64,000 bases of DNA, taken from Escherichia coli (lineage in GTDB: Bacteria > Pseudomonadota > Gammaproteobacteria > Enterobacterales > Enterobacteriaceae). Location of the stretch: NCBI RefSeq assembly GCF_024502345.1, contig NZ_JALDNN010000001.1; one strand, 5' to 3'. Positions 1 through 1,775 of this stretch are shown piece after piece. The translations under genes and the position numbers were made by a program. The notes beneath the pieces were generated by a model. That model was given only the letters and a program-made list of their open reading frames with translations. It made no database searches and was not told where the DNA came from. How positions within the stretch are numbered: the first letter of the stretch is position 1; every line of letters begins with the position of its first letter.

Positions 1-161
1 ATTGCTATCGATGTTTTACCATATGTATTGAACGATATTCCTAAATTTGAAATAGATAATGAAATGGAAGCTCGCATTTGTGCCAGGATAGTGATGGAAC
101 GTTTTAAGCAAGATGCAAGTAGGCATATTAATAAGTATATATCACGTTATGAAAATGTTAG

Positions 162-1356
162 GGAAGGTGCGAACAAGTCCCTGATATGAGATCATGTTTG
201 TCATCTGGAGCCATGGAACAGGGTTCATCATGAGTCATCAACTTACCTTCGCCGACAGTGAATTCAGCAGTAAGCGCCGTCAGACCAGAAAAGAGATTTT
301 CCTCTCCCGCATGGAGCAGATTCTGCCATGGCAAAACATGGTGGAAGTCATCGAGCCGTTTTACCCCAAGGCTGGTAATGGCCGGCGACCTTATCCGCTG
401 GAAACCATGCTACGCATTCACTGCATGCAGCATTGGTACAACCTGAGCGATGGCGCGATGGAAGATGCTCTGTACGAAATCGCCTCCATGCGTCTGTTTG
501 CCCGGTTATCCCTGGATAGCGCCTTGCCGGACCGCACCACCATCATGAATTTCCGCCACCTGCTGGAGCAGCATCAACTGGCCCGCCAATTGTTCAAGAC
601 CATCAATCGCTGGCTGGCCGAAGCAGGCGTCATGATGACTCAAGGCACCTTGGTCGATGCCACCATCATTGAGGCACCCAGCTCGACCAAGAACAAAGAG
701 CAGCAACGCGATCCGGAGATGCATCAGACCAAGAAAGGCAATCAGTGGCACTTTGGCATGAAGGCCCACATTGGTGTCGATGCCAAGAGTGGCCTGACCC
801 ACAGCCTGGTCACCACCGCGGCCAACGAGCATGACCTCAATCAGCTGGGTAATCTGCTGCATGGAGAGGAGCAATTTGTCTCAGCCGATGCCGGCTACCA
901 AGGGGCGCCACAGCGCGAGGAGCTGGCCAAGGTGGATGTGGACTGGCTGATCGCCGAGCGCCCCGGCAAGGTAAGAACCTTGAAACAGCATCCACGCAAG
1001 AACAAAACGGCCATCAACATCGAATACATGAAAGCCAGCATCCGTGCCAGGGTGGAGCACCCATTTCGCATCATCAAGCGACAGTTCGGCTTCGTGAAAG
1101 CCAGATACAAGGGGTTGCTGAAAAACGATAACCAACTGGCGATGTTATTCACGCTGGCCAACCTGTTTCGGGCGGACCAAATGATACGTCAGTGGGAGAG
1201 ATCTCACTAAAAACTGGGGATAACGCCTTAAATGGCGAAGAAACGGTCTAAATAGGCTGATTCAAGGCATTTACGGGAGAAAAAATCGGCTCAAACATGA
1301 AGAAATGAAATGACTGAGTCAGCCGAGAAGAATTTCCCCGCTTATTCGCACCTTCC
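162..1356 (+). mobile_element. IS5: IS5 insertion sequence, 1195 bp, flanked by 4-bp TTAG direct target duplications (158-161 and 1357-1360)
   Basis: Terminal inverted repeats GGAAGGTGCGAA at 162 and TTCGCACCTTCC ending at 1356; internal InsH transposase ORF; identical TTAG on both flanks. Confidence 0.95.
230..1210 (+). CDS. insH: IS5 transposase InsH
   Basis: Translation [12 protein letters not shown]...RQWERSH recognised as IS5 InsH. Track ORF starts 12 codons upstream at 194; start placed at MSHQ. Confidence 0.93.
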
Positions 1357-1775
1357 TTAGTGCAGGGGTGGTGATAATGGCGATGATACCTGTTTGGTTG
1401 CGTGATGTTATATTACTTCATGTTAATGAAATAGCTCATGTAATTCCTCCATCAACTAACACAGAAGATGTAGGTGAAGTCATATTTTTAGCCGAGAAGT
1501 TAAGCTATCCGCTACTTCCTGATTTTTAGTGTGAGTTAAAAGTTGATAGATCAAAAGTGTGTTTTTTTAGATTATATACTTGGATCCAAGCAGTGCTAAG
1601 GTTATTTCCTTAGCTCACTCATAACTAAATAGATATTTAGCTAGGGGGGACGATCAAACGTTAGCTCCTAGCTCATAACGGACGAACTGAGATATTTGTG
1701 CCCTGTAGAAGAGCACATCGACAGATAAAATTTCGACTGATACGGGGTTCGCTAACTGATGCCAGACAGGGCCAC

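Follow-up and report, generated by a model that had tools for sequence, protein, structure and literature searches.

A young IS5 insertion in a nuclease-like island gene beside mutS of Escherichia coli, probably made in Enterobacter

How does a gene carried by a mobile island come to be cut in two, what is lost with the cut, and in which host was it made? These questions are raised by the left end of a 64,000-nucleotide (nt) stretch of Escherichia coli DNA (contig NZ_JALDNN010000001.1 of assembly GCF_024502345.1), which we call the window and in which a copy of the insertion sequence (IS) IS5 lies within an open reading frame (ORF). An earlier note, made from the letters of the window alone, had read this arrangement as a relatively recent inactivation of an AT-rich island gene. 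We are confident in an account in which IS5 has entered a nuclease-like gene of an island placed at mutS, in which the insertion is young, and in which it was probably made in Enterobacter before the island reached this E. coli.

A complete IS5 in the first cargo gene of an island

A script run on the window finds TTAG at 158-161 and again at 1357-1360, enclosing exactly 1195 bp, and the full IS5 ends between identical TTAG copies that the earlier note described are there to the base. The element (162-1356, plus strand) is bounded by GGAAGGTGCGAACAAG at its start and CTTATTCGCACCTTCC at its end; the letters of the left junction (151-177) are ...GAAAATG-TTAG-GGAAGGTGCGAACAAG... and those of the right (1341-1368) are ...CTTATTCGCACCTTCC-TTAG-TGCAGGGG... 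The left terminal inverted repeat (162-177) agrees with the reverse complement of the right one (1341-1356) in 15 of 16 positions, and these imperfect 16-bp repeats, which start with GGAAGGTGCGAA, occur once per orientation across the window, where no second copy of IS5 was found. The insH transposase gene (230-1210, plus strand) encodes 326 aa, or 338 aa from an alternative ATG at 194, the frame 194-1210 being open. The 326-aa form carries a single substitution, E234K, relative to WP_000019403.1, and exactly this protein is on record with the Pfam domains DUF772 and DDE_Tnp_1.

Against complete E. coli genomes the element aligns end to end, at 99.0-99.7% identity, with features that carry the annotation 'IS5-like element IS5 family transposase'. 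It shares with the IS5 of E. coli K-12, a member of the IS5 group within the IS5 family, its 1195 bp, the 15/16 repeats, the 326/338-aa DDE transposase, the YTAR duplication and 99.6% of its nucleotides, with five differences from the copy in JM109 (K-12) and three from the best E. coli copies (99.7%). Unlike the K-12 element, it belongs to a minor subtype with C at IS position 141, C at 143 and A at 768, the last of these giving rise to E234K. The duplicated TTAG fits YTAR, the documented 4-bp target motif of IS5 (PMC5009759), and the empty site has a single TTAG, at gene nt 713-716. The copy in the window is complete and, by its sequence, apparently functional, and its insertion is a textbook IS5 gene disruption, ordinary and already known in kind.

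Removal of IS5 and one TTAG joins positions 1-161 to 1361 onward in one restored frame, ...RYENVSAGVVIMAMIPVWLRDV...LLPDF*, also given as ...RYENVSAGVVIMAMIPVWLRDVILLHVNEIAHV...LLPDF*, just as it had first been written. Of 5,426 complete E. coli genomes, four have an uninterrupted site that matches the reconstructed 501 bp over their full length at 100% identity. These are the chromosomes of ET490, KMi029, MSB1_9D and ES10, all of which annotate a 'hypothetical protein' there; IS5 was found at this TTAG in none of the 5,426. The intact gene of ET490 is an 885-bp coding sequence for a protein of 294 aa (WP_058690197.1), which immediately follows the gene for a site-specific integrase next to mutS. 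Window positions 1-161 (plus strand), which are 100% identical to ET490 within this coding sequence (locus L001, 12001-12161), hold an internal 5' piece of the gene, which begins with codon 186 and breaks off after the second base of codon 239, while the start of the gene lies upstream of the window. The orphaned 3' piece (1361-1529, plus strand) takes in the third base of codon 239 and all codons up to 294, and its stop codon occupies 1527-1529.

That a real gene has been split is borne out well beyond these four chromosomes. By exact-sequence look-up, the intact 294-aa protein is present on 590 public contigs from several Enterobacterales, and full-length homologues, ~290-300 aa in size, are known from Vibrio cholerae, Clostridioides difficile and metagenomes; a word-indexed search recovered 22 homologues and an exhaustive one 558 representatives, nearly all of ~290-300 aa. 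The search with the reconstructed ORF that the earlier note had proposed has in this way turned up a continuous ORF in four E. coli genomes plus a wider family. The note had also allowed that stops just outside the window might close the upstream frame, and the frame is open: the disrupted product is on record, exactly and from Met1, as the E. coli protein WP_256632726.1 / MCQ7033725.1. This product has 247 aa. The cut falls between V238 and S239, with TTAG in codon 238/239, and the IS5-encoded tail and stop lie at 160-189 (plus strand); residues 1-238 are followed by REGANKSLI, so that the last 56 residues are swapped for nine that IS5 encodes.

So precise a TTAG duplication, a frame that is restored on its removal and a perfect match to uninterrupted sites are together not something that chance can produce. 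The disrupted allele is rare, being seen in two contigs that we examined and in the E. coli record, against 590 contigs with the intact gene. We regard the insertion as young because the target-site duplication is perfect, the sequence on either side of IS5 has not diverged from that of empty sites and the disrupted allele is rare. The word 'recent' of the earlier note therefore stands, with the amendment that the event which it dates was probably one in an Enterobacter host.

The other part of that description, an AT-rich island gene, is equally sound. The content of guanine plus cytosine is 36% for the whole gene, with 32% and 37% for its two flanks beside IS5, and 52% for the window. A tyrosine integrase of 426 aa, with the domains Arm-DNA-bind_3 and Phage_integrase, adjoins mutS, and both ends of the island align with ~93 bp from the 5' region of K-12 mutS, K-12 itself having the empty site (ygbA-mutS). 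Sequence comparison finds, in other words, an integrase at the edge, target-derived direct repeats on both sides and an empty site in K-12, as expected of a site-specific integrative island. Along its whole length the window is collinear with ET490; from 1357 to 18723 the two differ by four mismatches and two indels in 17.4 kb (~0.3 differences per kb), whereas from 18724 onward (compared to 33000) the chromosome shows ~15 differences per kb, a sharp step in identity. The same island, ~99.9% identical, is found beside mutS in Enterobacter spp., and a version with 96% identity lies beside mutS in Salmonella enterica subsp. arizonae. The near-identity in Enterobacter spp., set against ~15 differences per kb in the adjacent core, leads us to conclude that the island spread very recently between genera. 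From this layout, the island is best described as one of ~20 kb in the 5' end of mutS, with the interrupted gene coming right behind its integrase as the first of the cargo.

The host in which IS5 moved

If an island passes so readily between genera, in which of its hosts did IS5 strike? The comparison of sequences inclines us to an insertion in Enterobacter that preceded the arrival of the island in this E. coli, which we hold to be the probable, if far from assured, course of events. IS5 would first have transposed into the TTAG of the 294-aa island gene in an Enterobacter host, duplicating the TTAG, and the already disrupted island, its integrase intact, would then have been transferred into E. 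coli at mutS.

Two lines of evidence point this way. The first is the junction itself. The identical left junction between gene and IS5 recurs in two more contigs, an ENA metagenome scaffold (with 51 nt of IS5) and the Logan contig SRR24201979_521 (with 25 nt), and in both the site and orientation of IS5 are those of the window, base for base. On SRR24201979_521 an intact integrase is linked to the junction of the gene with the left inverted repeat of IS5 and to a mutS that is ~82% identical to that of E. coli and encodes the Enterobacter roggenkampii MutS BDS22200.1. Over 3.5 kb this contig has 100% nt identity to E. roggenkampii AP026873.1, in which the 294-aa gene is intact and the integrase is split (226-aa and 143-aa parts) by an IS630-type (DDE_3) element (locus L022, 7348-9783). 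As the two are near-clonal and only SRR24201979_521 has IS5, it follows that IS5 hit this TTAG very recently within E. roggenkampii.

The second line is the subtype of the element. Among 13,819 IS5 places in the 5,426 complete E. coli genomes, the best match to the copy in the window is 99.7% identical, each differing from it by at least 3 nt, and its subtype is absent from these genomes. Among 72,556 plasmids, the sole IS5 copy of 100% identity is on the Enterobacter cloacae plasmid AP024496.1, with a 99.9% copy on an E. roggenkampii plasmid. The exact E234K variant of InsH is also that of BDS19255, BDS19273 and BDS19791, which, by the numbering of their accessions, appear to belong to the AP026873 genome (MutS BDS22200). 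In GCA_014104375.1 the same variant occurs in at least ten places (up to 13 with similar places), the IS5 being 1 nt different; all ten listed copies carry YTAR duplications, and the one flank tested had no match in E. coli. Taken together, these matches suggest that the IS5 of the window is of an Enterobacter-associated subtype. Were this so, an Enterobacter-type IS5 would serve as a marker of provenance, showing in which direction, and how recently, the island passed between genera at the mutS hotspot.

Could IS5 instead have moved locally, after the island had arrived? A resident IS5 of this E. coli, perhaps derived from an Enterobacter-type plasmid, would then have jumped into the gene, and the E. 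roggenkampii junction would be an independent hit on a hot spot. We take this as a real possibility, if not the course of events that we would expect. The near-clonal pair of AP026873 and SRR24201979, the one intact and the other with IS5, can be claimed for it, as a very recent insertion within Enterobacter; the gene has been struck repeatedly by IS elements, an IS3-family element having entered it both at nt 686-689 and near nt 146-149; and the island of the window lacks the C at 4562 that is found in AP026873. Against local movement, the gene offers 19 YTAR sites in two orientations, so that a random repeat of both site and orientation has a chance of ~1 in 38, the subtype is missing from the complete E. 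coli genomes, and the island moves between genera at ~99.9% identity, the IS5-bearing Enterobacter contig having an intact integrase.

Several observations nonetheless weigh against the Enterobacter-first history and should be set beside it. The stretch of IS5 visible in the E. roggenkampii contig is 25 nt and permits no call of its subtype. The window has a single IS5, and elsewhere in this E. coli genome there may be others of its subtype. IS5 is, moreover, reported to have strong hot spots of both site and orientation. At 4562 the window has T where the islands of E. roggenkampii AP026873 and E. sichuanensis have C, which speaks, if weakly, for a different haplotype of the island; at ~0.3 variants per kb there are too few variants for a comparison of island haplotypes, and 4562 is weakly informative. 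Compared with nine other copies of the island, that of the window has two private features, a G in place of A at 3659, within a gene for a 126-aa hypothetical protein, and a 1-bp deletion near 4012, which falls ~28 bp past the stop of that gene.

The interrupted product and its repeated disruption

What does this gene encode? By sequence, the intact 294-aa protein has no significant match in Pfam, NCBIfam, PADLOC, PHROGs or PDB, and it is conservation and predicted structure that offer a lead. In alignments of 21 and 63 homologues, which reach down to 20% identity, W19, R31, Y35, R108, E113, D134, C148 and K149 are invariant, and E147, S153 and Q167 nearly so (E147 being invariant in the 21 and conserved in at least 90% of the 63); G241, W251 and L252 are conserved in the 21 closer homologues. 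The AlphaFold model (predicted local distance difference test, pLDDT, 88.9; predicted template modelling score, pTM, 0.89) places an N-terminal helical domain before a helix (106-122), three strands (135-139, 142-150 and 182-189), after which come a long helix, a hairpin at residues 241-266 and one last helix. In this model D134 comes immediately before strand 135-139, and E147 and K149 are within strand 142-150. The motif of PD-(D/E)xK nucleases can accordingly be traced as D...(D/E)-x-K on adjacent β-strands, with E113 as the upstream helix glutamate, and the model has the α-β-β-β-α-β core fold of restriction endonuclease-like proteins.

Foldseek against the PDB gave weak matches (best E 5e-3), nearly all of them to PD-(D/E)xK nucleases: Cdn1, McrC, arenavirus cap-snatching endonucleases, Nt.BspD6I, XisH, Hjc and Can2. 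A profile of the family searched against the PDB had a sole near-match, to the 'DVVA...ECK' segment of AF1548. We place the protein in the PD-(D/E)xK superfamily, as an unclassified member and a predicted nuclease, because the motif residues are conserved and the fold matches agree, and because a competing label, DUF1837, was not reproduced and no helicase partner accompanies the gene. This label is that of UniRef, which calls the intact protein 'DUF1837 domain-containing'. With HamA (DUF1837, of the Hachiman system) and AbpA the protein has in common the same broad PD-(D/E)xK superfamily and a similar size. An identity with HamA or DUF1837 was considered and rejected, as there was no Pfam match at E≤1 and no PADLOC match to HamA; DUF1837 and Hachiman models are not among the families listed for the 63 relatives at E≤0.01, and a helicase partner of the HamB type is absent from the E. 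coli, Enterobacter, Salmonella, C. difficile and metagenome contexts that we inspected.

Nor does the protein fit within the Mrr/McrC types (AF1548, PDB 1y88; McrC, PDB 6hz4), to which it has no significant match as a sequence family; Pfam Mrr_cat is reached in two of the 63 relatives, at E 0.006-0.009. It differs from them in a conserved helical N-terminal domain of ~100 residues (with W19, R31 and Y35), in its C-terminal hairpin, and in being a single gene on mobile elements, without a McrB-like or methylase partner. Its neighbours on the island are the integrase upstream and convergent small genes of no assigned function downstream. The distant homologues are likewise on mobile elements: ArdA is the neighbour of one of them, on a conjugative element of C. 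difficile, and others adjoin a resistance cluster of the van type, one such locus also containing AbiEii; no conserved partner gene was found among these differing contexts.

The orphaned 3' piece encodes the conserved G241, W251 and L252, a β-hairpin and the last helix, and the loss of this hairpin and helix most likely inactivates the protein. The inactivation claimed in the earlier note is upheld to that extent: the last 56 residues are gone, and it is from their loss that the effect on function is deduced. What tells against it is that the truncated product keeps residues 1-238, and with them the whole of the predicted catalytic core.

IS5 is not alone in having struck this gene. Looked up by itself, the orphan 50-aa C-terminal ORF is present on 23 contigs, and the listed places carry a 1221-bp IS3-family element (with the ends TGACCTGC...GCAGGTCA) at gene nt 686-689, with an ATAA duplication, in codon 229 and 24 bp upstream of the IS5 site. 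The same element lies near nt 146-149, near codon 49, in another lineage. These elements, each interrupting the 294-aa gene, are at L012:8733-9953 and in loci L013, L015-L017 and L021. Nested inside an IS3-family insertion at L014:7602-8797 is an IS5-like element, 91.6% identical to IS5, which we tentatively take to be ISKpn26-like. Salmonella arizonae and an E. sichuanensis assembly have alleles that look frameshifted, from alignment gaps and split gene calls, and in E. sichuanensis the frameshift may reflect sequencing errors.

Is this more than decay? The pattern of disruption fits the neutral decay of AT-rich island DNA and leaves room for selection, under which the intact product would be a costly or self-toxic nuclease and IS hits would rise in frequency by relieving that cost, notably after transfer to a new host. 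We think such a selected knockout unlikely. At least four apparently independent lesions in one 885-bp gene speak for it (IS5, the IS3-family element at two sites and the frameshift-type lesion in Salmonella arizonae), as do the predicted nuclease fold, the homologues on mobile elements (such as that beside ArdA on the C. difficile conjugative element, and near AbiEii), the weak matches of a few family members to nuclease modules of defence proteins, and the precedent of IS knockouts of nuclease-based immunity, documented for cas genes (PMC10359306). On the other side, the intact allele, on its 590 contigs, is far commoner, AT-rich island DNA is a preferred IS target even without selection, the island integrase of AP026873 has also been hit by an IS, as neutral decay predicts, and the 294-aa protein itself matches no PADLOC model. 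It would be a similarly speculative step, and one that we doubt, to see in the gene the founder of a new stand-alone PD-(D/E)xK family with a role in defence or addiction, whose repeated disruption reflects selection and not neutral decay. If true, the family would be integrase-proximal cargo of mobile elements from Enterobacteriaceae to Clostridia. As an unannotated family of 558 representatives with a confident nuclease-like model, it is a candidate for screens of defence or toxicity.

That an IS5 repeat was simply misplaced in the assembly, the gene being really intact in this strain, is highly improbable: IS elements are common sites of misassembly and the right junction is without independent sequence support (its 53-aa GTG-start orphan ORF had no record in the exact look-up, its 30-nt pattern had no exact match in JGI metagenome contigs, and the 50-aa ATG-start C-terminal ORF was found, but in listed places that carry the IS3-family insertion and not IS5, all of which counts against our account), yet a misjoin would produce neither an exact 4-bp YTAR duplication with complete IS ends nor a reading frame regained without a base amiss, and the same left junction is present in the NCBI E. 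coli record, the Logan run and the ENA metagenome, all three of them separate datasets.

The island at mutS and its other cargo

The region between fhlA/ygbA and mutS is a published hotspot for integrase-bearing islands of Enterobacteriaceae (PMC7232297), and the island of the window resembles those islands in its chromosomal position, the related arizonae loci (L018 and L019) being recovered in our comparison. Set against them, it is characterised by junctions at which the mutS 5' end is duplicated and replaced, with a shared core around CTGCTGCATCATGGG. At its mutS end, the island brings a diverged replacement of about the first 14 codons of mutS (translated, MSIIENLDSHTPMM in place of the native MSAIENFDAHTPMM) together with the upstream region; this copy of the repeat is at L001:9835-9927 in the ET490 locus. 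The right boundary (18724-18816) consists of the displaced native mutS 5' end and its upstream sequence, in direct repeat with the copy on the mutS side, and ygbA comes next. By rebuilding the 5' end of mutS and the region upstream of it, the island could alter the expression of mutS and with it mismatch repair.

Beyond the interrupted gene, the rest of the island (1530-18723) is collinear with ET490. Its first part (1776-3491, minus strand) holds the three convergent small genes of no assigned function, for products of 109, 172 and 175 aa, and a Ner/HTH_35-like gene (89-92 aa), all conserved in every copy of the island. A PHROG search of the small genes at 1776-3491 gave nothing beyond one weak match; by eye, the 109-aa and 172-aa products look secreted, with hydrophobic N-termini. 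Genes for RadC, DUF2787 and AlpA are further cargo within 1530-18723, as are a second integrase (6577-7524) and, near the right end, Fic (17938-18555).

Between these lie genes for an N6-DNA methylase (11923-13458), a restriction S subunit (13458-15143) and an AAA ATPase (15153-16757), a stretch that, from its gene content, may constitute a non-canonical restriction or defence module. The interval 10302-17599 also encodes proteins of 494 and 282 aa of no assigned function, and no HsdR-type gene is annotated there.

A 205-aa ORF at 5865-6482 fuses CbtA-toxin and DUF905 domains. The same fusion is present in the Enterobacter copies of the island, while ET490 annotates a truncated CbtA pseudogene and a separate DUF905 gene; the gene for the CbeA antitoxin is present on the arizonae island and was not seen in the window. 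In the core chromosome to the right of the island, the array of tRNA-Ser and tRNA-Arg genes at 57.7-58.6 kb shows no difference in copy number from ET490, with one Ser and four Arg in both. Collinearity with ET490 is briefly broken in three core intergenic regions, at 33446-33450 (hycI/ascB), 40924-41036 (hypF/norW) and 53467-53658 (after recA), and these short breaks are probably small indels or differences in repeat elements.

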